Source: Candidatus Pacearchaeota archaeon (GTDB taxonomy: Archaea; Nanobdellota; Nanobdellia; UBA10117; JABICX01). From it: DNA of 64,000 nt. The position numbers and the translations under genes are program-made. The stretch lies in NCBI GenBank assembly GCA_017608025.1, contig JAFCGM010000001.1:3910-67909 (forward strand), written 5' to 3'. This document shows, in pieces, positions 14,721 to 60,245 of this stretch. The notes under the pieces are model-generated. The model was given only the letters and a program-made list of their open reading frames with translations, was not told the origin of the DNA and did not search any database. How positions within the stretch are numbered: the stretch's first letter is position 1; each line of letters begins with the position of its first letter.

Positions 14721-14721
14721 A

Positions 14722-15846: not shown

Positions 15847-16946
15847 AAGAACTTGAAAAAATAATTCAAAAAGAAAATCCGCAAAGAATTATGCTTTTTC
15901 ACGGAAAAACCTCTTATGAAAAATCTGGAGCAAAAGAGTTACTTGAACCGCTTCTAAAAGAATATCAAGTTCACCATTTTTCTAGTATAAGCCCAAATCC
16001 AAAAATTAAAGAAATTGAAAATGGAATCTGCGCTTTCAACCAATTTAATCCAGATTTAATAATTGCTGTTGGTGGAGGAAGTGTTCTTGATGTTGCAAAA
16101 TCAGTTAATGTTCTCTCAAATAACAAACACCAGCCACTTGCTTATTTAATGAAAGAATATGTACTGCGCAGAAAAGGAAAGCCATTAATTGCAATACCAA
16201 CAACAGCAGGAACAGGTGCAGAAGCAACTCAATTTTCAGTAATATATGTAAATAAAGTAAAGCAGTCCCTTGATAGCATATTTCTTCTTCCAACTTATGC
16301 AGTTCTTATGCCTGAACTAACAAAAAGTATGAATCCATATCAAACAGCTGTAACTGGAATGGATGCTTTGACACAAGCAGTTGAATCTTTATGGAGCATT
16401 AATTCAAATTCAGAATCTGATTTCTATGCAAAAAAAGCAATTACAAAAATTTTAGACAATTTAGAAACTGCAGTTAATTCTCCCACACTAAAATCAAGAG
16501 AGCAAATGCTTAGAGGAGCCCATCTTTCTGGAAAAGCAATAAATTTAACACATACAACAGCATGTCACGCAATATCTTATCCAATAACATCCTATTATAA
16601 TATTCCGCACGGTCATGCTGTAGCTTTAACTCTCAGAGCTGTCCTAAAATTCAATTCAGAAATAGACTTAACTAATGCGCGACTAAATGTAAATCCAGAG
16701 CATATTAAAACGCAGATAAAAAAAATAAACTTTCTTTTCAAAACAGAGAGTGTAGAGAGAACTGCTGAAAAAATTGAAAATCTAATGAAGAACATAGGTC
16801 TTGAAACCAAGTTAACTAAATTAGGCATACCTGAAAGCAGTGGAATAGTAACAATATTAAATAATGTTAATTCTGAACGAATGACAAACAATCCGCGGAT
16901 AGTTCGCGCATATGATATTCTTAAAATTCTTGAAGAAATAAAGTAA
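15843..16946 (+). CDS. group III iron-containing alcohol dehydrogenase (candidate phosphonoacetaldehyde reductase)
   Basis: GGGSVLDVAKS and PTTAGTGAEAT Fe-ADH motifs. ATGA overlap with the decarboxylase stop. The specific function is inferred from context. Confidence 0.7.
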   Translation: MKELEKIIQKENPQRIMLFHGKTSYEKSGAKELLEPLLKEYQVHHFSSISPNPKIKEIENGICAFNQFNPDLIIAVGGGSVLDVAKSVNVLSNNKHQPLAYLMKEYVLRRKGKPLIAIPTTAGTGAEATQFSVIYVNKVKQSLDSIFLLPTYAVLMPELTKSMNPYQTAVTGMDALTQAVESLWSINSNSESDFYAKKAITKILDNLETAVNSPTLKSREQMLRGAHLSGKAINLTHTTACHAISYPITSYYNIPHGHAVALTLRAVLKFNSEIDLTNARLNVNPEHIKTQIKKINFLFKTESVERTAEKIENLMKNIGLETKLTKLGIPESSGIVTILNNVNSERMTNNPRIVRAYDILKILEEIK

Positions 16947-16995
16947 ACTAAAGTATCAAAATACATTTAAAGCTTTGGGCATAAGAAATAAAACT

Positions 16996-17724
16996 ATGAG
17001 ACAGTTAAAACCATCGTACTTTAAACGGTATCGCAAGGGAAAAAAAGATGATTACTTTGCAGATAAAATTTTTAGAAAATTTTCACTATATACTTCTTGG
17101 TTAGCAGTTAAACTTAAAGTAAGTCCAAATATGGTTACTTTTTCTAGTTTTATTATGGATGTTATTGCTGCAGGAATTTTTCTTTTTTCAGGAAAGTGGA
17201 TTTTTTCATTAATAGCAGGATTATTAGTATTTTTTTCATTTGTTTTAGATCATTCTGATGGTGAAGTTGCTAGATATTTAAATGAGAAAAATAAAGTAAA
17301 AAATCCAAAAAGATTTGGTTCATATGTTGACTCTATATTTGATATGCTTTGTTTTATTGTGTTGTTTTTAGGTATTGGTTTTGGAAGTTACTTTAGAAGT
17401 GGAAACTTTGACTTTATTATATTAATGATTTTTTCAATAATTGCAGCAACACTTCTTACTGCAACTGCTCTTGGTTCTAGAGCTTACTTTTCAGATAGTC
17501 TTAAATCTAGCTTATCTCTTTCAGCTAGAGAAAAGATTTCAAAAATCTTTTCTAAAATCGGTTTAAATTTAGATTATAGGTTATTCTCATTTAGTGCAGA
17601 TGTTCAAACATTAATAATTTCAGTTTGTGCTTTAATTGGATTTCCATGGATATCAATGATTATTTTTTCTACAGTAGGTAATTTTTACTGGATTTTAAAA
17701 TTCTGGTTATATCGAAAGTATTAA
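16996..17724 (+). CDS. CDP-alcohol phosphatidyltransferase family membrane protein
   Basis: DHSDGEVARYLN...D(x)3D-type signature in a polytopic membrane protein. ATG at 16996 preferred over the TTG at 16975. Confidence 0.7.
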   Translation: MRQLKPSYFKRYRKGKKDDYFADKIFRKFSLYTSWLAVKLKVSPNMVTFSSFIMDVIAAGIFLFSGKWIFSLIAGLLVFFSFVLDHSDGEVARYLNEKNKVKNPKRFGSYVDSIFDMLCFIVLFLGIGFGSYFRSGNFDFIILMIFSIIAATLLTATALGSRAYFSDSLKSSLSLSAREKISKIFSKIGLNLDYRLFSFSADVQTLIISVCALIGFPWISMIIFSTVGNFYWILKFWLYRKY

Positions 17725-23816: not shown

Positions 23817-23852
23817 GTAATATTATCTGTTCTTTTTAATATATACTTTTTC

Positions 23853-23940
23853 ACTGCCTTTTTCAAAAAAAGGCAAGGTGCTAAAAAGCCCTTTTGGAAA
23901 AAGCGCAAGCAGAAAAACAGGTTAATCTCGCTTCGCGAAA
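23853..23940. repeat. left arm of an inverted repeat flanking the PAP2 gene (carries a 41-nt module insertion)
   Basis: actgcctttttcaaaaaaaggcaaggtgctaaaaa ... cgcttcgcgaaa is the reverse complement of 24722-24773, apart from an A-run length difference and the inserted 23888-23928. Confidence 0.85.
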
Positions 23941-23962
23941 AATCGTTTTTTTATTTGTTTTT

Positions 23963-24598
23963 TCAGATATATACTTTTTCCAATCTGCTTACAATAAATA
24001 TTGATATTGCTCCAAGTAAGAATCCAGCAAGAATGTCAATGAAATAATGCTGTTTTATTAAAATTGCAGAGGCGGAGAAGAGCAAAGCAAACAACAGAAT
24101 AATTATTCTTATTGTTAGTTGAGCTGTTTTGCTTGACATTATCTTTGCAAGAAATTCCTTTTTTGAGCTATACCAAAAGATAATCAAAGACCACGCAGCG
24201 TGCAGTGAGGGAAATACATTGTAAGGTGAGTCAAAAGACCTGAGCATTACAACTATTTGCGAAAATATGTCTGTTGTTTCAATTGGCGGCTTTATCATTT
24301 TCACTGGGAAAAATATGTAAAAGAAAATTGCAATAGACATTGAGAGAATTAAAGCAGAAATGTATTTTCTGGCATTTTTTTCAGAATACATAAACAAAAG
24401 AATTGCAGTAAGAACAAGGAACAAGTGGTAAAGAAAATATCCTATGCTAAAGGGAGCAATAAAAGGAATTAAGTTATCAATTTTCATGTTAAAAATGATA
24501 GCTTGCTTTAAAGGAAGAAACGAATTCATGAGAAGATAAAGAACAGGTATTAATAATCCTAGAATAATGAAATTTTTGTTTTCTTTTAAGATTTTCAT
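23963..24598 (-). CDS. PAP2-superfamily membrane phosphatase / phosphotransferase
   Basis: Polytopic membrane protein with SFPSLHAAWS and KQHYFIDILAG (PAP2 C2/C3-like motifs). Confidence 0.6.
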   Translation of the reverse strand: MKILKENKNFIILGLLIPVLYLLMNSFLPLKQAIIFNMKIDNLIPFIAPFSIGYFLYHLFLVLTAILLFMYSEKNARKYISALILSMSIAIFFYIFFPVKMIKPPIETTDIFSQIVVMLRSFDSPYNVFPSLHAAWSLIIFWYSSKKEFLAKIMSSKTAQLTIRIIILLFALLFSASAILIKQHYFIDILAGFLLGAISIFIVSRLEKVYI

Positions 24599-24721
24599 GG
24601 TTTAATTAAAAGATTAAATAGCCCTGCTCAGATTTGGAACGGAATTCCTTTTCAAAAAGGTCTGAACAAGTTCAGGCGCGAATTGGAACAAAAAGTTCGC
24701 TTCTTCCAACCTTAAGTAACA

Positions 24722-24773
24722 TTTCGCGAAGCGAATTTTTAGCACCTTGCCTTTTTTTTTTGAAAAAGGCAGT
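24722..24773. repeat. right arm of the inverted repeat; also the hairpin/T-run directly 3-prime of tRNA-Gln
   Basis: tttcgcgaagcgaatttttagcaccttgccttttttttttgaaaaaggcagt. It contains the GCCTTTTT...AAAAAGGC hairpin. Confidence 0.85.
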
Positions 24774-24775
24774 AA

Positions 24776-24848
24776 TAGCCCCGCCAGGATTTGAACCTGA
24801 GTCACGAGGTCCAGGGCCTCGTATGATTGGCCACTACACTACAGGGCT
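24776..24848 (-). tRNA. tRNA-Gln (anticodon CUG)
   Basis: Reverse complement is AGCCCTGTAGTGTAGTGGCCAATCATACGAGGCCCTGGACCTCGTGACTCAGGTTCAAATCCTGGCGGGGCTA. 7-bp acceptor stem, archaeal Gln-type D arm, anticodon loop CCCUGGA, GTTCAAATC T-loop. Confidence 0.8.
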
Positions 24849-24912
24849 ATTGTTTATATGTAGATTAAAATCAAAAATTAGTTTTTAAGTGTTGCTATTT
24901 GTTTTAGTTTAG

Positions 24913-28400: not shown

Positions 28401-28505
28401 AATTATTAATCTAGAAATTGATTAAAAAGCATTTGTTTAGTTTAATCTTTAATTGTAGTCTTAAGCTGTTATTGGCTATGAGTTAAAGGATTAATAAAAG
28501 CCAGA

Positions 28506-29129
28506 TTACATCTGGCTGTTTTCTTCATCAAGAAGTGCAGAATCAATAAGCTGTTTTCTCAATAATATAACAGCATCCTTGATTTCTTTCTCAGATTTTG
28601 CTCCGGTTATAACGATTTTTCCTGTTCCGAAAAGAAGGAAAGTTATATTGCTCAAAACCGGATTTCCAATTAATTTGTAAACAAGGCCTGGAAATTGTTC
28701 TGGCTCATATTCTGTGTTTTCAAATTCAAAAACAATTTCATTGAGGTTAAGGTTTCCTCCAACTGAGCCAGAAGCAACCATATTTTGGACTTCAATTTTC
28801 GGTTCAACATCAACTTTTATTTTTATTTTTTCTAGTTCCTCAACAATTCTTTTTATTGCGAATTTTGCTTCTTTTATTGATTTTGTTCCAGTGCAGATTA
28901 TTTTTCCAGAACTGAATAACAAGGACGAAGCTTCAGGGTTGCTTATTTTGAATATAAGGCCTGGAAATTGCTCAGGATTGTATTCTGCCCGGTCAAGCTC
29001 AATTGCTAGCTTTTCAAGAGGCAAGTCTCGTTCAATGCTTGCAGAGACAACAACATTTTCAGTTCGAGACCATACTTTTCCATCAGGTCCCTTATATTTT
29101 GATTTTTTAGGTATTTCAGAACTTTCCAT
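28506..29129 (-). CDS. tbp: TATA-box-binding protein
   Basis: Two direct TBP repeats with YNPEQFPGLIFK and YEPEQFPGLVYK. Confidence 0.9.
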   Translation of the reverse strand: MESSEIPKKSKYKGPDGKVWSRTENVVVSASIERDLPLEKLAIELDRAEYNPEQFPGLIFKISNPEASSLLFSSGKIICTGTKSIKEAKFAIKRIVEELEKIKIKVDVEPKIEVQNMVASGSVGGNLNLNEIVFEFENTEYEPEQFPGLVYKLIGNPVLSNITFLLFGTGKIVITGAKSEKEIKDAVILLRKQLIDSALLDEENSQM

Positions 29130-35490: not shown

Positions 35491-35763
35491 TTGGCAACTA
35501 GGCAGGCGAGTTAGGGGCTCGCTGTTACCTAAAATCCTCTTTAAGGGTGCTGAAGCTGCAGAGGCGGTTTTCATATTAATTGTCGTCTCTTTGCACTGGC
35601 GTCGAAGCGTTGCCTTCATTGGCATTTTGTTTATGTGAACCTGGTCAGGCCTTGACGGGAGCAGCCATAGCATGTTCAGAGTGCGCTTTGAAGATACAGC
35701 GTGGAGCTATGTAGAGAGGTTGCGGCATTTGGTATGGAAATCCACTTTGTGGCGTGTTGCCAA
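35491..35763 (+). ncRNA. signal recognition particle RNA (7S/SRP RNA)
   Basis: Helix-8 signature CCTGGTCAGGCC...GGGAGCAGCC. The ends TTGGCAAC (35491-35498) and GTTGCCAA (35756-35763) are perfectly complementary. TTTAAA box about 25 nt upstream. Boundaries are approximate. Confidence 0.7.
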
Positions 35764-35784
35764 AACTTTTTAGAAAAAAGTTTT
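35762..35784 (+). terminator. palindromic T5/A6 hairpin at the SRP RNA 3-prime end (candidate bidirectional terminator module)
   Basis: AAAACTTTTT AG AAAAAAGTTTT forms a perfect 10-bp stem and places an oligo-T run on both strands. Confidence 0.4.
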
Positions 35785-36171
35785 ATCAAAAACGTCTCGC
35801 TCCCGCTCGACAGAAAAGGGCAGAGAGTACTGAAAATTCATAGCAGTTACTCTTTCCACTCAGAAAAATGCTTTGCTTCAATAAATATGTTATTGCCAGA
35901 AACTTTTTAGAAAAAAGTTTCATCAAAAAGAAAATAGTTTTTCTTTGGGCAACTTGCACTTTTTTTTTAAAATAGAAAGAGCGGAGTGGGAAGGATGGTT
36001 TGTGAACCAGCAAACCCTTTAAAAAAGTGTTTGCATCCCCAAAGCCCCTTTTAGAAAAAGCGGCTAAGACTGCGTCTAAGGCGGCTACGCCTTCTGCGGA
36101 AACTTTTGGAAAAAGTTTCATCAAAAAGTTCTTTTTCGCCAGCGTTTTTCTTTCAAGAAAAAGGCTGAGTA

Positions 36172-36245
36172 TGGGAAGGGTGGGATTTGAACCCACGACA
36201 CCTAGATCTTCAGTCTAGTGCTCTCCCAGGCTGAGCTACCTCCCC
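36172..36245 (-). tRNA. tRNA-Phe (anticodon GAA)
   Basis: Reverse complement is GGGGAGGTAGCTCAGCCTGGGAGAGCACTAGACTGAAGATCTAGGTGTCGTGGGTTCAAATCCCACCCTTCCCA. Clean cloverleaf with anticodon loop CTGAAGA. Confidence 0.9.
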
Positions 36246-36523
36246 AGACCCTTTTAAGAAAAGCGTCCACGGAAAACGGACAGTTTCATCAAAAAGGAAA
36301 CCTTTTCGTTTGAGCAAAAACACCTAATTTCACTAAAGCGTATATGACTAAAATAAAGTTTAGTTTTAAAAGCTTTTTATTTTAATATGAAGATTTTATT
36401 TAAAAGGGTTTTTAATGATTTTTAATGAAAGATGTTTTAAGTGTATTACTTAATAGTAAGATTTATAAAGGCAATTTGTTACTATTATATAGTAGGCTAT
36501 ATAAGAGGTGCTGTTAATGAAGA

Positions 36524-37747: not shown

Positions 37748-38932
37748 ATGGATTCTATTATTGAAAGAGCATCACAAAGAGCAAATGAAGATTTTGGAGG
37801 AGAATTATCTGACCAAGAGTTTAGTTTTGGTTCAGATGACTTTGGAAAAGATTCTGGATTTGAAGATTCTAGCTCAGACATTCCAAAATCTGAAGATGAT
37901 GAGGAATTGAAAAAATATCTTGAAAATCGAAAAGCAAGAATAAAAGTTATTGGTTGCGGTGGTGCAGGAAACCACACTGTTTCACGAATTGCTGAAGTTG
38001 GAATTGTGGGTGCAGAGCTTATTTCTATAAACACAGATGCTCAGGATTTGCTTTCTTCAACAGCTGACAAGAAGATTCTTATTGGAAAAGACCTTACTTC
38101 AGGACTTGGAGCAGGCTCTGATCCTGAAGTTGGAAAGGAAGCTGCAAAAGAGTCTGAGCATGACTTAAAAGAGGTTTTAAAGGGAACAAACATGATGTTT
38201 ATTACAGCTGGACTTGGCGGAGGAACTGGAACAGGTTCAGCACCAGTTATTGCCCAGCTGGCAAAGAAAATGGGAATTTTAACAGTTGCAATTGTTACTT
38301 TGCCTTTTACAATTGAGGGGAAAAAGAGATTTGACAATGCAATGATTGGATTAGAAGAGCTGGAAAATGTTGTTGACACTCTTATTGTGATCCCAAATGA
38401 CAAGCTTATTGAACTTGCACCAGACTTGCCTTTGCATACAGCTTTTAGAGTTGCAGATGAGATTCTGACAAATGCTGTAAAGGGAATTGCAGAGCTGATT
38501 ACAAAGCCTGGACTGATTAATCTTGACTTTGCAGATATTAAGGCAGTTATGAAGTCAGGGGGAATTGCTATGATTGGAGTTGGCGAATCTGACACTGAGA
38601 ATCGAGGTATAGAGGCTGTTGAAAAAGCAATTTCAAATCCTTTGCTTGATGTAGATATTTCTGGCGGAAGCGGAGCACTGATTAATGTATGTGGCGGTCC
38701 GTCAATGTCGCTCGAAGAAGCAAAGAAAGTTGTTGAGACTGTTTCAGACAAGCTTGATGAGAATGCAAAGATAATATGGGGAGCACAAATAAGCCAGGAC
38801 TTACAGAACACAATTCGGGCAATGCTTGTTATTGTTGGAGTTCAGTCAAGCCAAATCTTCGGACCAAACAGAACTTTCTCAAAGAAGAAGATTGATGATT
38901 TGTCTAATGACTTAGGGATTGACTTTATATAA
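37748..38932 (+). CDS. ftsZ: cell division GTPase FtsZ
   Basis: GCGGAGNH and the tubulin signature GLGGGTGTGSAPV. Acidic N-terminal extension. C-terminal tail ...DDLSNDLGIDFI. Confidence 0.95.
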   Translation: MDSIIERASQRANEDFGGELSDQEFSFGSDDFGKDSGFEDSSSDIPKSEDDEELKKYLENRKARIKVIGCGGAGNHTVSRIAEVGIVGAELISINTDAQDLLSSTADKKILIGKDLTSGLGAGSDPEVGKEAAKESEHDLKEVLKGTNMMFITAGLGGGTGTGSAPVIAQLAKKMGILTVAIVTLPFTIEGKKRFDNAMIGLEELENVVDTLIVIPNDKLIELAPDLPLHTAFRVADEILTNAVKGIAELITKPGLINLDFADIKAVMKSGGIAMIGVGESDTENRGIEAVEKAISNPLLDVDISGGSGALINVCGGPSMSLEEAKKVVETVSDKLDENAKIIWGAQISQDLQNTIRAMLVIVGVQSSQIFGPNRTFSKKKIDDLSNDLGIDFI

Positions 38933-38949
38933 AATCCCTTTTTATTAAC

Positions 38950-39429
38950 ATGGATGGCTTAGAAAACACTTTAGAAAAAAGGCAGAAGGTTAAAGAATTA
39001 GTTGAAAAAAGAATAAAACAAGCTAAACAAAGAAAAATATGGGACAAGGCATGGTATGTTTCTGAAGTGTTGGGAACTAAAATATCAAAAAGTTTTAGTT
39101 TTATTAATAAAAACATAGAAATTAGTAATAATGAAGACTTTCAAAAAGATTACCATTCACCAACGCATCATATTTCTATCTATAAATTTGAGGATGATAA
39201 ATCTTGGATGGATGGAGAACCATTGAAGGAACTTGTTTTCAAAGCTGACGGTAGCTTTGGAAACATTGTTGATGAAATAAAAACATATGTTCCAGGCAAT
39301 TGGGAAAAAGAGTTAAATACATTATATAAAAAAGCTTTGAAGAAACCTGAAGAAGATAAAAAAGCTGAAGAACAGAAATACAAAAAAGACAATAAAGATA
39401 ACTGGGGTATTGACTTCAACGAACTCTAA
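38950..39429 (+). CDS. hypothetical protein with FtsZ-tail-like C-terminus
   Basis: 159-aa lysine-rich ORF starting 18 nt after ftsZ. Ends ...KDNKDNWGIDFNEL. Confidence 0.5.
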   Translation: MDGLENTLEKRQKVKELVEKRIKQAKQRKIWDKAWYVSEVLGTKISKSFSFINKNIEISNNEDFQKDYHSPTHHISIYKFEDDKSWMDGEPLKELVFKADGSFGNIVDEIKTYVPGNWEKELNTLYKKALKKPEEDKKAEEQKYKKDNKDNWGIDFNEL

Positions 39430-39627
39430 TCTATTTTCTCGCTTGTAATGACTTTTAAATACACATTTAATTAACTGAAAAGTTATTATGAAAATCCAAT
39501 ATGAAATATTCCTTGTGCTTATTAGTTTACTGCTGGTTCTGGCAGTTGCTGCTGAGACGCAATACAATGACACAGTGAAACATATACACTAGGCCTGACT
39601 CAGGACTATAATGTTGTACTGAAAGAA

Positions 39628-40251
39628 ATGAGTGAAAATTCTGTTACAATTAAAGTTGAAGGACCTACTAAATCAAGAACAAGAACACTTGAACTTGAAG
39701 AAGAATATAACTTCTTTGATGAGATATACATTAAAGTTCATGATATAAATTACACTGAAAATGAATTAGATATAAATGACGCGAACGGAGATGCAACTTT
39801 CGAGATATATGATGTAAATCGAGAAATTTGTAGTGAAAAAAAGATTTCATATTTTTCTACAATCGATTTTACACTTGACCACACCATTGATTTTCATCAA
39901 ACAGATGTATCTATGACATATATTGGAACAAACAAAGCAGAAATAAATTATAATTCAAATAAAAAGACGCTTTCAATTGGAGAATACTGCACTGCAGACA
40001 ATATTCAGGTTTATCTTGAATCAATTGACTATGATGATAATATAGTTAATCGAAGAGTTAGTTTAAAGATTTGTCAGCCAGGCGAAGGGTCAGCAGAAGA
40101 AGTTTCTCTTACAGCAACAGAAGAAGCACAAGAGCAAGTTGAAAAAATATATCGAGCAACAACTGAAGAAAAAGAAGAAACACCGCCAATGCCAGAACCT
40201 CGTCGCGGACTCTTAGCATCATTCTTTAACTGGTTATTCAGCTTGTTCTAA
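39628..40251 (+). CDS. secreted-protein paralogue (probably frameshifted; signal peptide encoded separately at 39488-39592)
   Basis: The ORF at 39488 encodes MKIQYEIFLVLISLLLVLAVAAETQ... and stops at TAG 39590-39592. Another frame opens at 39571 with SETYTLGL... and runs on to 40251. Confidence 0.5.
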   Translation: MSENSVTIKVEGPTKSRTRTLELEEEYNFFDEIYIKVHDINYTENELDINDANGDATFEIYDVNREICSEKKISYFSTIDFTLDHTIDFHQTDVSMTYIGTNKAEINYNSNKKTLSIGEYCTADNIQVYLESIDYDDNIVNRRVSLKICQPGEGSAEEVSLTATEEAQEQVEKIYRATTEEKEETPPMPEPRRGLLASFFNWLFSLF

Positions 40252-40488
40252 GCTGAATTTTTATTTCTTTTTATGAAATCTCTTTTTTGTAAGAAAAGTC
40301 TTCCAAACTCAAAGAATAAATTGTTAAGAAAAAATGTTCACAAAAGAGAAAAGCAGATTTAGCAAGTGATTTAGGAATTGACTTTATTTGAACTTTTTTA
40401 GAAGTGATGTTTTTGAAAGAAACTAATCTTCTTTTTGTTTGTTTTTCTAAAAGAAAACCTTTTTAAATTCAATATTGGTTTTATTGTT

Positions 40489-41220: not shown

Positions 41221-41710
41221 AACAACTATTGAAGCATTAGTTGAAGGTGGAAAAGCAACAGCAGGACCTCCATTAGGACCGGAGTTAGGACCGACAGGAG
41301 TTAACATTGGACAAGTTGTTGCTGAAATAAACCAGAAAACAGCAGATATGAATGGAATGTCTGTTCCAGTTAAAGTAATTGTTAATGTTGAAAATAAGAC
41401 TTTTAAAATTGAAGTTGGAACACCTCCGACTTCAGGCTTGCTTAAAAAAGAAGCTGGAATTGAAAAAGGAAAACAAGGAACTGAGGAAAATGAGGAAAAA
41501 AAGTTTGTGGGAAATATTTCAATTGATTCAGTTGTCAAGGTTGCAAAAATAAAAAGAAACGCAGTTTTGGCAAAAACCATGAAGTCAGCTGTAAAGGAAA
41601 TTATTGGAACTTGCCAGACGCTTGGCATTACTGTTGAAAGCCTTACGCCAAAGGAAGCAATTCAGGCAATTGATGCTGGCCGATGGGCAGATAAGTTTAG
41701 GAAGGAATAA
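41213..41710 (+). CDS. rpl11: 50S ribosomal protein L11 (uL11)
   Basis: GGKATAGPPLGPELGPTGVNIGQVV. Confidence 0.9.
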   Translation: MSETTIEALVEGGKATAGPPLGPELGPTGVNIGQVVAEINQKTADMNGMSVPVKVIVNVENKTFKIEVGTPPTSGLLKKEAGIEKGKQGTEENEEKKFVGNISIDSVVKVAKIKRNAVLAKTMKSAVKEIIGTCQTLGITVESLTPKEAIQAIDAGRWADKFRKE

Positions 41711-41765
41711 TTGTAGGCATCGCATTTTGTTTGCCTGCTCAAAGCGCTAACTGATTTTGCGGCTG
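41711..41765. repeat. GC-rich hairpin element (family B), inverted copy
   Basis: Its reverse complement cagccgcaaaatcagttagcgctttgagcaggcaaacaaaatgcgatgcctacaa aligns with 54927-55021. Confidence 0.7.
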
Positions 41766-41794
41766 TGGGCAGATAAATTTAGGAAGGAAAAGTT

Positions 41795-51004: not shown

Positions 51005-51352
51005 ATGTTTTTTATGAGCTTGAAAAAAGACCATTATTTTCGGGTTTTGAAGAACTCTGTTGGAAAACACTTTTCAAGTGAAAGAACACAATACAATTCT
51101 TCTCAAAAAGAGATAATTTCTGAAGAAAAAAATTTTTCTGAAGAAAAATTAGAGTCTTTGCTTTTTGATATTAGCAGTTCTTTTAAAAAAGAAAATTTTA
51201 ATATTTATTTTCATACAATTTCAAAATCAAGACAAAACAGAGCTGAACTTATTAATTTGGTTTCTGGAAGCGAAAAATACAATATAACAATTACTGCAGA
51301 TACTGATGAGAAAGGAACTCGGTATAAAATAAGCCTTTTCTTAGATTTTTAG
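51005..51352 (+). CDS. hypothetical protein
   Basis: 115-aa ORF transcribed divergently from the HerA-like gene. Confidence 0.35.
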   Translation: MFFMSLKKDHYFRVLKNSVGKHFSSERTQYNSSQKEIISEEKNFSEEKLESLLFDISSSFKKENFNIYFHTISKSRQNRAELINLVSGSEKYNITITADTDEKGTRYKISLFLDF

Positions 51353-51437
51353 AAAAATAAAATTCTTACCAAACAACATTGACTTCATCTGTTCTCTAGC
51401 AAACCCTTTAGAAAAGTGTTTGTATTCCCAAAGCTTT

Positions 51438-51567
51438 CTTAGAAAGAAAGCTTGCAAAGAACAAAATTTTTCTTAGAAAGAAAGCTTGCAAAGAACAAAA
51501 TTTTTCTTAGAAAGAAAGCTTGCAAAGAACAAAATTTTTCTTAGAAAGAAAGCTTGCAAAGAACAAC
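51438..51567. repeat. 34-nt tandem repeat, about 3.8 copies
   Basis: cttagaaagaaagcttgcaaagaacaaaattttt starts at 51438, 51472, 51506 and 51540. Confidence 0.95.
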
Positions 51568-51597
51568 AACCTAAACTTTGTTCTAAACAAAAAGAAA

Positions 51598-52587
51598 TTA
51601 CCAAACAACATTGACTTCATCTATTCTCCAATGCTGTTTTATTCCTGATTTTATGAGCCGTGTTTTTTTACCTGCTTTATGCTCAAGGATTCCCTGCCAA
51701 GCAATCATTGTTCCATTGTCTCCTGCTAATGAAGGCGGTACTGCTGAAAATTTTATGTTTCTTTTTCTGCACATAATTTCCATCATTTCCTTTAATCTGG
51801 AATTTGCAGCTACTCCGCCAGTAAGAAGAACTTCTTTTTTTCCAATGTGTGAGATTGCTCGTTCTGTTGCTTCAACAAGCTCTGAAAATGCAGTTTCCTG
51901 TGCTGAATAGCAAAGGTTTTGTTTTGAGTGCTTTTTTGAAATATTATTCAGCTTTGTTTGCAATCCAGAGAAAGCAAAATCCATTCCTTTTATTGTGTAA
52001 GGAAGCTTGATGTAATTTTTTCCTTTTTTTGCTAATTTTTCAATTTCTGGTCCAGCTGGAAATCCAATTCCGAGGGTGCGGCCAAAGGAATCAAGGAAGT
52101 TTCCAACCCCAATATCAAGAGTTTCGCCGAAAACGCGATATTTACCAGATGCAAGAGCCAGTATTTGGGTGTTTGCTCCTGACACATAAAGAGTTATGGG
52201 GTCTTTGAAACCAGAATAAAGCTTTCCGATTTCAATGTGAGCTATGCAGTGGTTTACTCCAATCAATGGCTTTTTTAGGAAAATTGACAGAGAGCGGGCA
52301 GCATTTGCCCCTATTCTAAGACACGCTCCAAGCCCAGGCCCTTGAGAAAAAGCAACCAAGTCAATATCTTTGAATTCAATTTTAGCGGATTTCATTGCTT
52401 TTTCAATGATTTTGTCGTAAATCAGCTTGTGATGCTCTGCTGCTTTTCTAGGGTGGATTCCTGCGTTTTCTGTTGTAAATACTGACTTTTCATTAGCAAG
52501 TATTTTTCCACTATTATCAACAATTCCAACTCCAAAAGTATGGGCAGTAGATTCAATTCCTATGCATATCATTTTTTGCTGTTTCAT
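51598..52587 (-). CDS. kae1: tRNA N6-adenosine threonylcarbamoyltransferase Kae1
   Basis: GIESTAHTFGVGIV, HCIAHIE, GGVAANSRL. No fused Bud32 domain. Confidence 0.9.
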   Translation of the reverse strand: MKQQKMICIGIESTAHTFGVGIVDNSGKILANEKSVFTTENAGIHPRKAAEHHKLIYDKIIEKAMKSAKIEFKDIDLVAFSQGPGLGACLRIGANAARSLSIFLKKPLIGVNHCIAHIEIGKLYSGFKDPITLYVSGANTQILALASGKYRVFGETLDIGVGNFLDSFGRTLGIGFPAGPEIEKLAKKGKNYIKLPYTIKGMDFAFSGLQTKLNNISKKHSKQNLCYSAQETAFSELVEATERAISHIGKKEVLLTGGVAANSRLKEMMEIMCRKRNIKFSAVPPSLAGDNGTMIAWQGILEHKAGKKTRLIKSGIKQHWRIDEVNVVW

Positions 52588-53599
52588 TTATTTTAGATTT
52601 TCCTTTTTTAAACAATCTTTCAAGCCATTCAACTACTTCATCAGTTACTTCAAAATCATGGTCTTTAAGATGTTCTATTAGAATTCTTTTTGTTTCACTT
52701 ATTTCTTTTATGCAAGTGTTTTTGTATTCTTCCTGGATATTTTGTATTTCTTTCATTATTTTATTTACTTCTTCAATTTCTTTGGAACTAATCTTTTTTT
52801 TGCTTAGTTTTTCAAGAGCTTCTTTTCTTTTTTCTGCAAGTCTCTTTTTAATCATAAGTAGCTCTTTGCTTTTTACAACACGCAAACGTTGAAATGTTGC
52901 TTTAGCACTTTTAAATACTACTAAGTGATCTTTTTCCTTTTTTTCTTTTATGTGATCTTTTACAATATGCCAAATCATTGAAGCATTTCTCCTAAAATAA
53001 TTATACAGTTCTTTTTCTAGAGCTTCATCTTTTTCAATTTGATGCCGCAATTTTTCAATTTTGCTTTTGTTTGTTATGTCTGGTTTTTCCATTTTTCTGT
53101 AATGTTTTGTTAGTTTTAAGTCAGCCATTTTTTCTTGAATTAATGCTGCTTCATATTCTGATAATTTTTTTAATGAATCTGAAAATTCTTTAAAATCTTT
53201 GCTATTTTTGAATTGAGATGTTACATGATTTAAAACTGTTTTTTCAAGATATGTTTTTGCAACATCAGAAAAAGATATTATTTCCTTTGCTTTTTTTATT
53301 AAATTATGGTATTCGTTACTATATTGTTTTATAGTTATTTTTTCAGGAGAAGACTCTGACTCTTTTATAAAAAGTTTAAATTCTTTGTATGAATTTTCAA
53401 TATAGTTTATAATTTCATTTGAAAATTTATTTTTTATTTTAGAATCATATTGCAGTTCATAACTCTCATAAAGTTCTTTTATGTCCTTGAAAATTTTTTT
53501 AATTCCTTTTCTTAATAGCCATTTTTTTAGTTTTTCATATCTCTTGCAGTAAATTTTAAGCTTGTTTATTATTTCACTAATATCAATTATATTATTCAT
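52553..53599 (-). CDS. K/E-rich coiled-coil protein (hypothetical)
   Basis: 348-aa ORF whose 3-prime end overlaps the kae1 start. Confidence 0.45.
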   Translation of the reverse strand: MNNIIDISEIINKLKIYCKRYEKLKKWLLRKGIKKIFKDIKELYESYELQYDSKIKNKFSNEIINYIENSYKEFKLFIKESESSPEKITIKQYSNEYHNLIKKAKEIISFSDVAKTYLEKTVLNHVTSQFKNSKDFKEFSDSLKKLSEYEAALIQEKMADLKLTKHYRKMEKPDITNKSKIEKLRHQIEKDEALEKELYNYFRRNASMIWHIVKDHIKEKKEKDHLVVFKSAKATFQRLRVVKSKELLMIKKRLAEKRKEALEKLSKKKISSKEIEEVNKIMKEIQNIQEEYKNTCIKEISETKRILIEHLKDHDFEVTDEVVEWLERLFKKGKSKINETAKNDMHRN

Positions 53600-53653: not shown

Positions 53654-53775
53654 CTGGCGGAAAACGATTAGGAATAAACAACTAAAGGAAGAATTACAGT
53701 TGCACAGCCCTTTTAGAAAAAGCGCTGGCGGAAAACGATTAGGAATAAACAACTAAAGGAAGAATTACAGTTGCA
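53654..53775. repeat. 51-nt direct repeat x2 (20-nt spacer) duplicating the dhs 3-prime end
   Basis: ctggcggaaaacgattaggaataaacaactaaaggaagaattacagttgca occurs at 53654-53704 and 53725-53775. Confidence 0.95.
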
Positions 53776-54647
53776 TCTCCAGGGATTGTGACGAATTTTG
53801 CGTTTTCCTTGACTTTTCCCCAAGAAATTGCTTCCCTTATTCTTGCTCCAGACAGAGAGCCGTCCCATTCTGGGGCAGAAGTTATGTAAACAGCATAATC
53901 AAGTCCGTTTCTGAACTGCGCCCACCAGATTACATGGTGCTTTGATATTCCTCCGCCAAGCATTAATGCTCCGAGCTTTTTTGAGTCCATTACAAAATTG
54001 TATATTTTTTGCTCATCTTCAAAAAGGTTTAGTTTGAATTCCTTGTTTCTGTTCCAAAAAGACCATAATTGAGATCCAAGAGCGCCATCAAGCGGTCCGG
54101 GCAAGAATATAGGAATTTGATTTTTCCAGCACCAATAAAGAATTGATTCTGCTTTTTTATTTGATTTTGAGAGCTCTTTTCCAATTTCCCATACAAGCTC
54201 ATGAGTTGACCATTCTTTTTTTTCAGAAAAAAACTTTTTTAACATTGGCTGGATTTTATCTTCCATAACTGGACCATATGAATCTTCATCAAGGTAAATG
54301 TTTCCAAGGCGGAATAAATGCTTTTTGTGAAGCTCCTTGTCGTTTACAAACCATGAGCCTTTTTTGTAGTCTTTGTAAAGCCGAATCAAATCATGTGCTA
54401 CAAAAGCAGGAGTTGAAATAATTGCATCAACTTGATTTTTCCTAACTAAGTCCTTGATTAATCCGCGAGTGCCAACAGCAATTAAGTTTCCAGTAACAGA
54501 AAGAATTATTTTGCAGTCTTTTTCTGACTGCATTTTTTTCCAGATTTTACTTCCAGTTGCAACTTCTGTTGAAGAGAAGCCACCAGCTTCTGAAAATTGA
54601 GAAACCAAATCCTTAATTGTTTTTGGAGAGTTTATGTCCTTAATCAT
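53739..54647 (-). CDS. dhs: deoxyhypusine synthase
   Basis: LGALMLGGGISKHHVIWWAQF and ISWGKV patterns. About 300 aa. Confidence 0.85.
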   Translation of the reverse strand: MIKDINSPKTIKDLVSQFSEAGGFSSTEVATGSKIWKKMQSEKDCKIILSVTGNLIAVGTRGLIKDLVRKNQVDAIISTPAFVAHDLIRLYKDYKKGSWFVNDKELHKKHLFRLGNIYLDEDSYGPVMEDKIQPMLKKFFSEKKEWSTHELVWEIGKELSKSNKKAESILYWCWKNQIPIFLPGPLDGALGSQLWSFWNRNKEFKLNLFEDEQKIYNFVMDSKKLGALMLGGGISKHHVIWWAQFRNGLDYAVYITSAPEWDGSLSGARIREAISWGKVKENAKFVTIPGDATVILPLVVYS

Positions 54648-55506: not shown

Positions 55507-55689
55507 TTATATTCTTATAGCGTATTCTCCTGCTTCGCTAATATTTAACTTTTTTGCAATCAAAGACTTTTCAGCATTGATTATAATAACTTTTCCTTTC
55601 CATGCTTCTATTAATTTTGCGTCTTTACAGACTGGGCATTTGCTTCCTTTTACCAGCCTTTTGCATTTCTTGCATGCTTTTAATCCCAT
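55507..55689 (-). CDS. spt4: transcription elongation factor Spt4 (RpoE'')
   Basis: MGLKACKKCKRLVKGSKCPVCKD zinc ribbon, downstream of rpo7. ATG at 55689. Confidence 0.8.
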   Translation of the reverse strand: MGLKACKKCKRLVKGSKCPVCKDAKLIEAWKGKVIIINAEKSLIAKKLNISEAGEYAIRI

Positions 55690-55775
55690 TATTTTTATGC
55701 TAAAGGGACACACAGAGCCCTTTTAGAAAAAGTGCTCGCAGAAAAAAACCGAGCAAAGCTCGATAATGTTAATCC

Positions 55776-56351
55776 CTATTTGCTTCCTCCTGCTGCCTTA
55801 GCAGCTTTTTTCTCCTTTTCAGCCTCTTCCTGAAGCCATTCAAGCTTTCCGAGAGCAGGCTGACGCATTGTAAGACCTATTTTCGGATTTTCAGGGTCTT
55901 TTAATGAAACTGCGATTATTCTTGCACGAACTTTATCTCCCTGTTTAAGGCTCTTTTTTGAGGACTTCCCTTGCAGAGTTCCCTGCTTGCTTACAGAGAC
56001 AAAGTCATCCATTGTCTGGGAGAGATGAACCATTCCTTCAAGAGGGCCGAAGTCAATGAATGCTCCGAACTTTGCAATGTCACGGATTTCCCCTTCGACA
56101 AGTTCATTTATTTCAGGAATATAGTGCATTGCTATGAACCTTGTTTTATAGTATGCTCCGCCGTCTCCAGGAATAAGGACTCCTTCCTTAATGTCAATGA
56201 TTTTCTCAATGAAAATAATTACTCCAAGTGTTTCATTGATTTTTCCTTCGTATGTTTCCTTGAGCTGTTTGAGGATTGATTTTTTGAGGTTTTTTCCAAA
56301 AAGATGGGGATTTACTCTTACAACTCCCTCGATTTCAGACTTGTAGTACAT
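55776..56351 (-). CDS. rpo7: DNA-directed RNA polymerase subunit Rpo7 (E')
   Basis: N-terminal Rpb7-like fold plus S1 domain (GEIRDIAKFGAFIDFGPLEGMVHLSQ). Confidence 0.85.
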   Translation of the reverse strand: MYYKSEIEGVVRVNPHLFGKNLKKSILKQLKETYEGKINETLGVIIFIEKIIDIKEGVLIPGDGGAYYKTRFIAMHYIPEINELVEGEIRDIAKFGAFIDFGPLEGMVHLSQTMDDFVSVSKQGTLQGKSSKKSLKQGDKVRARIIAVSLKDPENPKIGLTMRQPALGKLEWLQEEAEKEKKAAKAAGGSK

Positions 56352-56765: not shown

Positions 56766-56953
56766 TAGCTTTTTTTAAATTTATTTAATATAAATGTTTT
56801 TAAGGTTTTAAGAGCTTTTCTTTAAGTTAAAATGGAAAGAGCACTTTTAGAAAAAGTTTCATCAAAAAAATGGCTTTGGGAAAAGCGCTCGCGGAAACTT
56901 TAGAAAAAGTTTCATCAAAAAATAAGGGCTTTGAGAAAAACGATCACTGGAAA

Positions 56954-59093: not shown

Positions 59094-59200
59094 GAATTTA
59101 AAACAAAATTTAAATTTATAAGTGTTTGTTCAAGAAGGTATATATTATTATTTGTTTAATTCTGCTGTTGCTTTTAAAATGCTTTAAATTCTGTATTTTT

Positions 59201-59478
59201 TTACAGGAGCTCTGTGAAAACTAGGTTTATTTTCGCAGTTAGGGCAATAAGGAACATATTCATAATTACATTTTCCAGAGCCAGAAAGAGGAAACAGGCT
59301 GTCATGAATTAGATGAGCCACTCTTGCTCCTAGGATTTTTTTACCACATTTTGTACATGAGTAAGATTTACCATCATCTATGCTTTTGTATGCAAAATCA
59401 TTTCTTCTTTTTTCTTAAAATAAGCATTGCATTTTGGGTGTTCAGCAACTTTAGGATAGTATGAAGGTCTGTTTGGAT
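59201..59478 (-). pseudogene. 5-prime-truncated, frameshifted paralogue of the zinc-ribbon gene 59754-60134
   Basis: Reads NPNRPSYYPKVAEHPKCNAYFKKKEE, then a frameshift in an A-run, then NDFAYKSIDDGKSYSCTKCGKKILGARVAHLIHD...YVPYCPNCENKPSFH. A stop codon lies upstream of NPNRP. Confidence 0.75.
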
Positions 59479-59753
59479 TTGTTTATCTTGATGAAGGTGC
59501 TAAAGAACCTTTTTAGAAAAAGCACGAGTAGAAAAACAGGTTAATCTTACTTCGCTCGAAAAAAGCATTTGAGGATGCAAACACTTTTCTAAAGGGTTGC
59601 TGTTACATTAACCCTGAAGGTTAGGCATTTGCGTTATATTCTTAAGTGAAGCAAAATTATTTATATAAAACAAACCACTCTCTAAAGCCACAAAATTTTA
59701 AAAAACTATGCAGATAAAGAATTTTACAAGTATTAAGAACTCAAAGGTAAGCT

Positions 59754-60134
59754 TTAAATCGTCGGTTCTTCTATCACAGGATCTCCGTGAAAGTTTGGTT
59801 TTTTCTCGCAAGAAGGACAATATGGAACGATTTCATAATAACATTCTCCAGAACCTGAATTAAAGAATAAACCATCATGAATCGGATGAGCAACTCTTAC
59901 TCCTTGAATGTTACCACCGCATTTTGTACATGAGAAAGATGCACCATCATCTATGCTTTTGTATGCAAAGTCATTCTTATCTTTTTTTTCAAAATAAGCA
60001 TTGCATTCTGGACACTCTGCGATTTGTGGATGATAACTTGGACGATTTGGGTTAATAGAAATAATTTTAAATTCTAAATCTTTACCACAGCACTGTATGG
60101 CTTTATTCTTTTTTTTGTCTTCTTTATTACTCAT
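59754..60134 (-). CDS. multi-zinc-ribbon protein (hypothetical)
   Basis: CPECN...CTKCGG...CPSCE cysteine pairs. 126 aa. Confidence 0.55.
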   Translation of the reverse strand: MSNKEDKKKNKAIQCCGKDLEFKIISINPNRPSYHPQIAECPECNAYFEKKDKNDFAYKSIDDGASFSCTKCGGNIQGVRVAHPIHDGLFFNSGSGECYYEIVPYCPSCEKKPNFHGDPVIEEPTI

Positions 60135-60245
60135 TGTAACTAAATGAGAGTAATTTTATTTTAAAAAAATTTGTATGTTAAATTGTATATATTACATATT
60201 ATTCCAGAAAAGTTAGGCATTTGCGTTATAATTTAATTGGTGTTT

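Follow-up and report, generated by a model that had tools for sequence, protein, structure and literature searches.

Insertions bracketed by duplicated gene termini at gene 3′ ends in a compact archaeal genome

A 64,000-nt stretch of a Candidatus Pacearchaeota archaeon genome (hereafter the window) carries seven or more insertions that can be dated, each placed exactly at a gene end; at loci such as kae1, dhs and L11, the end of the gene is found twice, once attached to the gene and once as an orphan on the far side of the inserted DNA (Table 1). The original prediction, made from the sequence alone, had read this pattern as the footprint of a process that inserts DNA at gene 3′ ends and regenerates the terminus. 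Insertion is established by relatives with empty sites (kae1, dhs, rpb7/spt4, tRNA-Gln and ftsZ), and the prediction is further supported by orphans lying beside ancestral downstream DNA and by an excess of such duplications over chance. We tentatively interpret the loci as insertion scars of 3′-terminal displacement via break repair or one-ended recombination, a plausible reading that falls somewhat short of probable.

Table 1 Coordinates of genes, duplicated termini, inserts and modules in the window
Feature	Position	Strand	Details
kae1 (tRNA t6A synthase) CDS	51598–52587	-	ORF; Pfam TsaD 1.3e-81; 100% match to database protein P0001
Gene-attached kae1 terminus copy	51598–51628	-	Last 10 codons and TAA
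Orphan (displaced) kae1 terminus copy	51366–51396	-	Ancestral position
Convergent 115-aa ORF	51005–51352	+	Stop marks ancestral neighbour of kae1 stop
kae1 insert, 201 nt	51397–51597	.	Non-coding; missing in L001, L002, L177
Module C in kae1 insert	51399–51434	+	Hairpin CAAAC.c.CTTT-aga-AAAG.t.GTTTG, then TATTCCCAAAGC; adjoins orphan
34-nt tandem repeat	51435–51566	.	3.9 copies, 100% identical (Tandem Repeats Finder)
Gene-proximal hairpins	51561–51594	.	GAACAA..TTGTTC and CTTTGTT-cta-AACAAA(AA)G
dhs terminus duplication	53654–53775	-	Orphan 53654–53704; gene-attached 53725–53775; both 51 nt, perfect
rpb7/spt4 junction	55680–55781	-	74-nt insert 55695–55768
L11 locus	41685–41792	+	Terminus 41685–41710; insert 41711–41766 (56 nt, module E); orphan 41767–41792
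ftsZ locus	38879–40391	+	Terminus 38879–38932; island 38933–40337; in-frame orphan 40338–40391
tRNA-Phe locus	35988–36246	-	tRNA 36171–36246; insert 36011–36172 (modules B, A, C); orphan 3′ end 35988–36010
tRNA-Gln locus	24619–24849	-	tRNA 24775–24849; insert ~133 nt; orphan 3′ end 24619–24640
Module D with module A nested	23875–23937	+	Second filled copy 59494–59558; empty inverted D 24725–24748
Module B	35763–35792	+	AAACTTTTTAGAAAAAAGTTTyATCAAAAA; palindromic, promoter-like; repeat family

The clearest example is found at kae1, whose start is placed in the database at the Met codon at 52572. Its terminus was predicted to be duplicated over 32 nt; the duplication, stop codon included, spans 31 nt (TTACCAAACAACATTGACTTCATCT[G/A]TTCTC), and the 32nd base is unequal. 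The copies are spaced 232 nt apart and differ by a single mismatch (51391 G vs 51623 A), which on the sense strand is a C/T difference within the WRTD motif, where the gene-attached copy reads ATA (Ile) and the orphan retains the ancestral ACA (Thr). Of the 120 closest Kae1 proteins, 113 have threonine at this position, and isoleucine is found in the window protein only. The distance from the orphan to the stop codon of the convergent ORF is 13 nt. In three relatives (L001, L002 and L177) the site is empty, with 0–9 nt separating the kae1 stop from the convergent gene, and the window's orphan occupies the site held in these relatives by the kae1 stop, beside that gene.

As predicted, the roughly 200 nt between the copies are non-coding, with no notable ORF and no Rfam family (the sole matches, to MIR396, scored 25 bits where the gathering score is 80). 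The insert contains module C, a perfect 34-nt tandem array and hairpins; the array had been placed at 51438–51567 with about 3.8 copies and was refined to the boundaries in Table 1. A TTTCTT-AGA-AAGAAA hairpin lies inside every copy of the unit, the first copy forms a perfect hairpin (AAGCTTTCTT/AAGAAAGCTT, 51431–51453), and the anticipated GAACAA...TTGTTC hairpin was found at 51561–51583. Core-like hairpins are found near both ends of the kae1 insert, with no clear terminal inverted repeats. The array is clearly a product of slippage. Its unit might conceivably have been made by inverted templating, the reverse complement matching the ancestral junction (51346–51372) at 19 of 27 positions, with only two such non-self matches in 64 kb.

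The same architecture recurs, as anticipated, at dhs, L11, tRNA-Gln and tRNA-Phe. At dhs (gene at 53739–54647) the whole insert is one dispersed module of 34 nt, module A, whose hairpin (53705–53724) separates the two copies; the insert is orthologous in sister L001, which has a diverged ~60-nt orphan, and the site is empty in L002, L177, L084 and L085. Both the L11 duplication and its insert are orthologous in sister L083, where the tRNA-Phe orphan is also present with different modules. The tRNA-Gln orphan is followed by an ancestral-like spacer, and this site is empty in L165; the gene-attached acceptor stem contains a T.G wobble at a position where the orphan and L165 have A. A further junction, rpb7/spt4, holds an insert in which a terminator-like hairpin plus T7 is combined with module A and a TATA-like box; it is flanked by a ~13–15-nt duplication (AAATAGGGATTAA, 55769–55781, and AAATAATGGGATTAA, 55680–55694) of native sequence from both sides of the gene boundary, and is empty in L001, L002 and L177.

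Elsewhere the prediction was borne out in part. The ftsZ terminus is duplicated, but the expected tiny non-coding insert proved to be a coding island of about 1.4–1.46 kb with two ORFs; the site is empty in L174, and in sister L083 it holds another island with unlike gene cargo and an orphan reduced to a vestige. The SRP RNA case is marginal, its repeat being limited to ~8 nt of the RNA end plus module B. Most inserts are 34–201 nt, with ftsZ alone reaching ~1.4 kb, so the description of inserts as tiny and encoding nothing suits most of them and fails for the ftsZ island and for the kae1 insert of L053, inside which lies a 42-aa ORF.

The frequency of such structures was assessed by searching the 400 nt after every ORF for its terminal 24 nt, counting matches of at least 20/24, across 2,373 ORFs in 1.9 Mb (the window's 80 included). 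Matches were over-represented in the window, at 3 of 80 ORFs (kae1 24/24, dhs 24/24, L11 21/24) vs 2 in about 2,290 ORFs from the other fetched loci, and two controls yielded 1 and 3 matches among 2,373 ORFs. Gene-end duplications in the window thus exceed chance, and the other archaeal loci sampled, by a large factor. Duplication lengths range from ~13 to 60 nt (about 0, 13–15, 22, 26, 31, 51–60 and 54 nt when duplication-free module insertions are included). The duplication ends 0–2 nt from the stop codon or tRNA 3′ end at kae1, dhs (in L001), L11, ftsZ, tRNA-Gln and the L053 kae1, at gene ends where the ancestral spacers offered 9–140 nt.

Comparison of the copies indicates which of them is original. 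At kae1, dhs, tRNA-Gln and ftsZ the orphan is contiguous with the ancestral downstream flank; it is the original copy, in the ancestral state, and the gene-attached copy is derived (the kae1 isoleucine, the tRNA-Gln wobble). The copies diverge like alleles: in three diverged pairs the differences fall at codon positions 5/7/17, with 14 synonymous vs 9 non-synonymous codon changes (simulated P = 0.009, 0.004 and 0.002, one value per pair), all stops are kept, and the lone indel is a whole codon, in frame. The L11 copies evolve in concert, with 4 of 5 lineage-specific substitutions common to both copies within each genome; short-tract conversion is therefore active there.

The inserts are made of dispersed palindromic modules, A to E, each with identical ends at unrelated loci and in several copies. 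Module C is found, as predicted, also at 36010–36045 (92% identical) and inverted at 59573–59600. Module A stands alone at dhs, is nested in module D and lies inside the rpb7 insert, while module E occurs at L11 and in sister contig L164. Stems read from the hairpin list covary (CAGC/GCTG, GAGC/GCTC, AGCC/GGCT, GAC/GTC and GCAAAC/GTTTGC) around a conserved mismatch. A hairpin module lies 0–6 nt from the orphan at kae1, dhs, tRNA-Phe (in both genomes) and tRNA-Gln, and the insertions of A in D and of E in L164, both in roomy spacers, have no duplication. Further copies of module B are found near 35900–35929, 36098–36127, 56839–56868 and 56892–56921. In Diapherotrites L026 its motif precedes the ATGs of kae1 and spt4 by ~12–20 nt and also stands immediately before an apparently non-coding sequence that is present in two copies. 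Module B looks like a promoter common to the window and a distant DPANN lineage. Module B was also considered as a C/D-box sRNA (TGATGA, minus strand) and rejected, having no D box and a motif just upstream of the L026 start codons. The modules probably serve as terminator/promoter spacers between formerly abutting or overlapping genes.

Pfam searches detected no integrase, transposase or other recombinase domain in the ftsZ-island ORFs, all insert neighbours, and the other scanned ORFs of the window and relatives' loci, no reverse transcriptase among the window ORFs scanned, and no Cas1; PHROGs gave no viral family for the ftsZ-island ORFs. Three candidate systems were set aside: a diversity-generating retroelement (no reverse transcriptase, a kae1 mismatch not at an adenine, and housekeeping targets), casposon- or CRISPR-type integration (no Cas1, and duplications of varying length), and a bulge-helix-bulge RNA intron, for which, by inspection, the direct repeats cannot pair mutually and the terminus is not self-complementary.

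Under 3′-terminal displacement, repair would start from a break, or from a replication intermediate that has stalled, within the final 15–60 nt of a gene and would copy another template; candidates are a second copy of the chromosome, a strain present alongside and one of the dispersed module copies. Synthesis would pass through the gene end, creating a new terminus, and go on into non-homologous intergenic DNA of palindromic promoter- or terminator-like modules before aborting at a hairpin, and the new strand would rejoin the chromosome at a point upstream of the former gene end. In this way the gene would stay whole, its terminus newly synthesised or imported, and the original terminus would become the downstream orphan by the old flank; later, short-tract gene conversion could homogenise the copies and slippage could expand hairpin units, as in the 34-nt array. 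The break, template switch and end-joining are steps that we infer, and homology-facilitated illegitimate recombination together with C-terminal displacement leaving orphaned 3′ regions offers a precedent (PMC5361080).

Duplications are expected to stop at gene ends under displacement because homology between template and target ends there. The allele-like divergence, the kept stops and the derived gene-attached states argue for this reading, as do the hairpin modules adjoining orphans, the variable duplication length with none in roomy spacers, the empty-handed searches for an integrase, transposase or viral family, and the conversion at L11. Against it, no donor allele (kae1 natively followed by the window insert) was found among 160 kae1 loci, 82 of which were checked for module C; a metagenome scan returned no relative closer than 73% Kae1 identity, and exact-protein look-ups of the window's Kae1 and DHS gave no entry. 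Sliding identity profiles against a sister genome revealed no divergence step marking an imported tract along kae1, dhs, ftsZ or L11, which likewise counts against displacement. By eye, no junction microhomology was evident between insert and orphan at kae1 and dhs. The synonymous bias could also stem from ongoing exchange of orphans with functional alleles of empty-site chromosomes, and the gene for an enzyme could lie outside the region examined, which spans 64 kb of a 157-kb contig.

Two loci point away from displacement and towards mobile elements: the dhs insert, as a single dispersed module, is more simply explained by one, and rpb7/spt4, which duplicates native sequence across a gene boundary, resembles a plain target-site duplication. 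It is possible, though on balance doubtful, that modules A–E are MITE- or REP-like non-autonomous elements moved by a transposase encoded elsewhere in the genome, whose long and variable stagger is filled in to duplicate 13–60 nt, with survivors only where the gene stays whole. Discrete modules with the same ends across contexts (three for A, three loci for C, L11 and L164 for E), pairs of filled and empty sites, and stems covarying around a conserved mismatch, like hairpins recognised by proteins, all fit such elements, and IS1634 and IS1549, from a family frequent in Euryarchaeota, generate direct repeats of 8–514 bp (PMC2266710). However, a transposase was found neither in the window nor in relatives' loci, the kae1 insert is bounded by no clear terminal inverted repeats beyond the common core motif, and duplications without a characteristic length, missing altogether for A in D and E in L164, stop precisely at gene ends instead of anywhere in the spacer. 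Synonymous-biased divergence would also be unexpected if one target gave both copies, and neither the ftsZ insert nor that of L053 is a module.

An unlikely reading takes the duplications as attL/attR of an integrative element (virus or plasmid) that carried a replacement terminus and was later deleted to a remnant, or of a non-autonomous mini-element mobilised in trans. Archaeal att sites measure 8–69 bp, and 14 of 68 thaumarchaeal elements lie in 3′-distal parts of protein genes (PMC6563490), which the window matches in its hits on tRNA and protein-gene 3′ ends and its repeats of 13–60 nt. Also in keeping are duplications that stop at the gene end, direct repeats of which one completes the target with empty sites in relatives, copies that diverge as expected of element-borne replacement termini, and an ftsZ cargo differing between two sister genomes. 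The originally proposed likeness to integrative elements accordingly stands for architecture; for mechanism it is undemonstrated, with no integrase in any of about eight events and no viral or plasmid family. At least six target genes in 64 kb would call for many specificities, no element-sized circularisable cargo is seen, the ftsZ insert alone reaching 1.4 kb, and the remaining inserts of 34–200 nt (at dhs, a single 34-nt module) are built from repeats common to ordinary spacers, modules A and C having no match in the viral contigs of IMG/VR.

A more speculative proposal, which we also think improbable, is that an undescribed insertion process in one DPANN clade plants palindromic, TATA-like spacer cassettes (terminator plus promoter) at gene 3′ boundaries, duplicating 13–60 nt as it does so. 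If true, its driver would be an unknown enzyme or hairpins during replication, and an ultra-compact genome would have its overlapping or abutting genes divided into distinct transcription units.

Local mutation alone, in which slipped-strand tandem duplication, in-place divergence and hairpin expansion act with no imported DNA, is very unlikely. In formal terms, dhs in the window has a 71-nt unit in 1.7 copies, and both the slippage-derived 34-nt array and its inverted match to the ancestral junction would suit this account, but the dispersed modules largely refute it: the material between copies is new to each locus yet common to other loci. Moreover, the orphan adjoins the ancestral flank with no second insert copy (kae1, and dhs in L001), and slippage leaves unexplained why duplications stop at gene ends. 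Assembly artefact or chance similarity is hardly credible. The kae1 structure comes from a single assembly, and assemblers have difficulty with the number of copies in a perfect 34-nt array; but one base separates the two kae1 copies, their flanks are unlike, the over-representation is strong, and an independent assembly of the sister genome also shows the duplications at dhs, L11 and tRNA-Phe, which argues against artefact for those three.

DPANN genomes are among the most compact known, and little is understood of how they acquire spacers, promoters and new genes. The window's host is a tiny-celled, Woesearchaeota-like DPANN archaeon. Each event left an essential gene (kae1, dhs, L11, ftsZ and the tRNAs) intact through duplication of its end, and gene-end insertion is a real and unusually frequent route of remodelling for a very compact genome. 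Orphan termini are molecular fossils by which the events can be dated and oriented, and they display short-tract gene conversion; in metagenome-assembled genomes they offer a practical marker for insertion hotspots, and they call for caution from gene callers and tRNA finders. If the process is repair-based, the loci would be evidence that homology-anchored illegitimate recombination shapes the core genome of an archaeon; should an enzyme drive it, this would be a new mobile element with long duplications.

Several known systems share parts of this architecture. REP/BIME, pneumococcal BOX and Correia elements are dispersed imperfect palindromes at bacterial gene ends. They are modular, with an internal unit that varies in copy number, have promoter or terminator activity, and leave no duplication or one of 2 nt only. 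The window modules have a similar palindromic and modular build, although no RAYT or transposase was seen with them, and their core resembles an archaeal TATA box. IS1634 and IS1549 likewise leave variable direct repeats of tens of bases around the insertion, but are 1.5–2 kb insertion sequences with a transposase, whereas the window inserts are 34–200 nt and no transposase was found (PMC2266710). Archaeal integrative elements have 8–69 bp direct repeats that regenerate the target, empty sites, and both tRNA and protein-gene targets; unlike them, the window has many targets and spacer-repeat inserts with neither an integrase nor element-sized cargo (PMC6563490). C-terminal displacement, as proposed for Rhs, CDI and T6SS effector loci, is a mechanism not known from archaea, and the window differs from it in that housekeeping genes and tRNAs are affected, the displaced pieces span just 13–60 nt, the new terminus equals the old one in function, and the imported DNA consists largely of non-coding palindromic modules of 34–200 nt. 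The two nevertheless agree in that a new 3′ end is followed by the old 3′ end as a downstream orphan by the old flank, in allele-like copies and in requiring no dedicated recombinase (PMC5361080).

The 201-nt block that separates two copies of the kae1 terminus in the window is an insertion. The original prediction had placed this duplication correctly to within one base, and the other copies that it reported of the insert's module are present at 36010-36045 and, inverted, at 59573-59600. An ORF search of the block returned no ORF of note, and no Rfam family matched it. The site is empty in the sister assembly (L001) and in two more distant relatives (L002 and L177), where a gap of just 0-9 nt, with no insert, separates the kae1 stop from either a convergent ORF's stop or the following gene. 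The L001 kae1 end aligns by BLAST to both window copies, and the alignment runs on from the orphan, the spare copy displaced downstream, into the convergent ORF and then herA; the orphan therefore occupies the former gene-end position.

Features of the kae1 3′ end and its insert (window positions)
Feature	Position	Strand	Description
kae1	51598-52587	minus	protein ends ...HWRIDEVNVVW, then stop
kae1 terminus, gene-attached copy	51598-51628		31 nt including stop
kae1 terminus, orphan copy	51366-51396		one mismatch to gene-attached copy, spacing 232 nt
Module C	51399-51434
Perfect 10-bp hairpin	51431-51453
34-nt tandem unit	51435-51566		3.9 copies, zero differences
Two further hairpins	51561-51594

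These comparisons draw on a window with a G+C content of 26-37% (2-kb bins) that carries archaeal core protein genes (kae1, dhs, S27a, S24e, rpb7, herA, ftsZ, mcm, SRP54, and FtsY) and genes for the archaeal SRP RNA, tRNA-Gln, and tRNA-Phe. The nearest named relatives are Candidatus Woesearchaeota MAGs, with Kae1 identities of 78% and 70%. The sister assembly (GCA_964558255.1), sampled through three contigs (L001, L083, and L164), is syntenic with the window at ~80% DNA identity, and the syntenic but more distant relatives comprise L002 and L165 (GCA_964435825.1), L177, and L174.

Duplicated gene ends recur at dhs, L11, ftsZ, tRNA-Gln, and tRNA-Phe, in agreement with the original prediction, although its description of the inserts as tiny and non-coding fails at ftsZ. 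There, an in-frame copy of the 54-nt terminus, stop included, lies 1.46 kb downstream, and the copies bracket an island with two ORFs, neither of which matched a viral family; the L174 site is empty (ftsZ, 45 nt, secE). The first island ORF (38950-39429) has the C-terminal residues WGIDFNEL, similar to the C-terminal peptide of FtsZ (DLGIDFI), and the orphan terminus (40338-40391) still encodes SQKRKADLASDLGIDFI and a stop; each could act as a decoy for, or a partner of, any factor that binds the FtsZ tail. At dhs, a perfect 51-nt repeat flanks a 20-nt module A hairpin. The sister dhs stop is followed directly by module A, a diverged ~60-nt orphan, and the ancestral spacer, while L002, L177, L084, and L085 have empty sites. 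The sister gene aligns over its full length (82%) apart from an in-frame TAA (L001 2351-2353) in place of the window's TAT (Tyr); for a gene that is otherwise essential, this means a nonsense mutation, pseudogene status, or a sequencing error. In both window and sister, the 26-nt L11 terminus is repeated beyond a 56-nt insert. In L001, L002, and L177, rpb7 and spt4 overlap or have a gap of 3-5 nt. The window has a 74-nt insert between them, containing a hairpin with T7, a TATA-like box, and module A, and bordered by a ~13-15-nt duplication. The kae1 terminus is also duplicated (~50 nt) on a contig of another lineage, Iainarchaeum (L053), where the copies flank 215 nt of inserted DNA with a 42-aa ORF.

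Among the RNA genes, tRNA-Gln has a degenerate orphan 3′ end ~133 nt downstream, and the spacer beyond it resembles the post-tRNA spacer of L165, where the site is empty. The interval from this orphan to the next conserved gene holds a gene for a PAP2-family membrane phosphatase (23963-24598), flanked by inverted module D copies (23850-23945 and 24725-24775); L165 lacks the phosphatase gene at the corresponding place. An orphan tRNA-Phe 3′ end is found in window and sister, with different intervening modules. The sister tRNA-Phe (L083 983-1100), missed by ARAGORN, has an apparent ~40-nt intron in the anticodon region; the window gene (36171-36246) has none.

A scan of the final 24 nt of every ORF against the following 400 nt (match, at least 20/24) covered 2,373 ORFs in 1.9 Mb. 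It recovered terminus duplications for 3 of 80 ORFs in the window and two in ~2,290 ORFs of all other fetched loci, one being the sister's L11; two controls gave 1 and 3 matches per 2,373 ORFs.

A few dispersed units make up the inserts. Two of them, modules A and C, share the hairpin pattern N4-6. c. CTTT(T)-AGA-(A)AAAG. y. N'4-6, in which the hairpin top and a C.C/C.T mismatch are kept and the outer stems vary with complementarity preserved (CAGC/GCTG, GAGC/GCTC, AGCC/GGCT, GAC/GTC, and GCAAAC/GTTTGC). Neither was found in IMG/VR, in which eight contigs contain module B, AAACTTTTTAGAAAAAAGTTTCATCAAAAA. On the Diapherotrites contig L026, the module B motif precedes the start codons of kae1 and spt4 by ~12-20 nt and also directly precedes two copies of a sequence that appears to be non-coding, and these positions suggest that it may be a palindromic BRE/TATA-type promoter. 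The two copies (1786-1900 and 8426-8540) are near-identical, G+C-rich, and at least ~95 nt each. Inserts tend to have a hairpin and then a T-run at the gene-proximal end, and at gene-distal ends a hairpin module lies 0-6 nt from the orphan. Units also occur without duplications: module A is nested within repeat D (filled n = 2, empty n = 1) with no target duplication, and module E, which is part of the L11 insert, is also found between TBP and mcm in the sister, with no terminus duplication, but not in the corresponding spacer of the window. The TBP gene itself ends within a hairpin that spans its stop and precedes a T-run (window 28495-28530, L164 1810-1835, and L165 8925-8960). In this clade, terminator-like hairpins that overlap the final codons may be frequent, and could account for the need to duplicate gene ends upon insertion. 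At a small zinc-finger gene, a tandem paralogue or truncated copy (59196-59480 vs. 59754-60134; 76% identity over 225 nt, period 573 nt) has modules D, A, and C in place of its 5′ part, and a 19-nt upstream piece is also doubled (59620-59638 vs. 60212-60230).

Duplications range from ~13 to 60 nt, and are zero for modules in wide spacers. In six events they end 0-2 nt from the stop codon or tRNA end, although ancestral spacers offered 9-140 nt, an exactness that goes beyond selection alone. In three diverged terminus pairs (L001 dhs, window ftsZ, and L053 kae1), differences at codon positions 1/2/3 number 5/7/17, with 14 changed codons synonymous and 9 non-synonymous (P = 0.009, 0.004, and 0.002 under random placement of equal numbers of changes). 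A stop is retained in each of the three orphans, changed only from one stop codon to another, and the only indel is a whole codon. This bias and the kept stops indicate that the copies diverged as coding alleles, either with one copy coming from another chromosome or strain, or through ongoing exchange between orphans and functional alleles. The orphan retains the ancestral state, and the gene-attached copy the derived state, at kae1 and tRNA-Gln. The sole kae1 difference is ACA (Thr; 51389-51391) in the orphan, as in L001, L002, and L177, versus ATA (Ile; 51621-51623) in the gene. Thr occupies this position of the WRTD motif in 113 of the 120 closest Kae1 proteins and Ile in the window protein alone; the change could be a repair-synthesis error, a tolerated substitution, or a consensus error. 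At L11, four of five window-versus-sister substitutions are common to both copies within each genome, and the dhs copies are identical in the window and diverged in the sister; short-tract gene conversion is therefore active between the 26-51-nt repeats.

A fast-evolving ORF of unknown function between dhs and kae1 (window 52553-53599, L177 4213-5325, and L002 3271-3915; 22% full-length identity between window and L177) is absent from L001. Genes at 12878-17724 for a PEP phosphomutase-cytidylyltransferase fusion, TPP-dependent decarboxylase, Fe-alcohol dehydrogenase, and CDP-alcohol phosphatidyltransferase look like a phosphonate head-group pathway (e.g., 2-hydroxyethyl- or aminoethylphosphonate), notable for a reduced DPANN genome. 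A single 1270-aa ORF (6962-10774) joins kinase-like, class II aldolase-like, and ribulose-phosphate 3-epimerase-like domains.

Among the candidate mechanisms, 3′-terminal displacement through repair or one-ended recombination is tentatively favored. Synthesis primed within a gene end would copy another template past the gene end into foreign spacer DNA and halt at a hairpin, and the new strand would be rejoined upstream. The "junction" at the stop codon would be the mere end of homology, and the hairpin/orphan boundary the only true junction, while the variation in duplication length would follow from the position of the break. Against this reading, a scan along kae1, dhs, ftsZ, and L11 revealed no imported tract, neither a donor allele nor visible microhomology was found, and the rpb7/spt4 and dhs events resemble plain insertions of mobile modules. 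The main rival invokes MITE-like elements mobilized by a transposase whose stagger is long and variable, for which the 8-514 bp direct repeats of IS1634 and IS1549 are a precedent (PMC2266710). Pfam scans of ORFs from the window and relatives identified no integrase, transposase, reverse transcriptase, or Cas1 domains. Decayed att sites of integrative elements would agree in repeat sizes and targets (PMC6563490), but are improbable given tiny, non-coding inserts common to several loci and no integrase. Local slippage would account for the 34-nt array but leaves the imported modules unexplained, and is very improbable. The array's sequence also hints that the other strand of this locus templated part of the insert: when reverse-complemented, the unit (51452-51478) matches the ancestral junction of convergent ORF end, spacer, and kae1 stop (51346-51372) at 19 of 27 positions, and just two non-self matches of this type occur in the window. 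An assembly artefact may affect kae1 copy number, but is unlikely for events present in two assemblies.

The original reading of insertion at gene 3′ ends that regenerates the terminus thus holds in general form, with the 31-nt kae1 duplication real and the empty sites it called for found at kae1, dhs, rpb7/spt4, tRNA-Gln, and ftsZ. Insertion-derived gene-end duplications and orphaned 3′ ends are known kinds of event; unusual here are how often they occur, that they target housekeeping and tRNA genes, that their cargo is very small, palindromic, and promoter- or terminator-like, and that the copies clearly evolve in concert. The favored displacement agrees with a model put forward for toxin loci, C-terminal displacement by homology-facilitated illegitimate recombination (PMC5361080).
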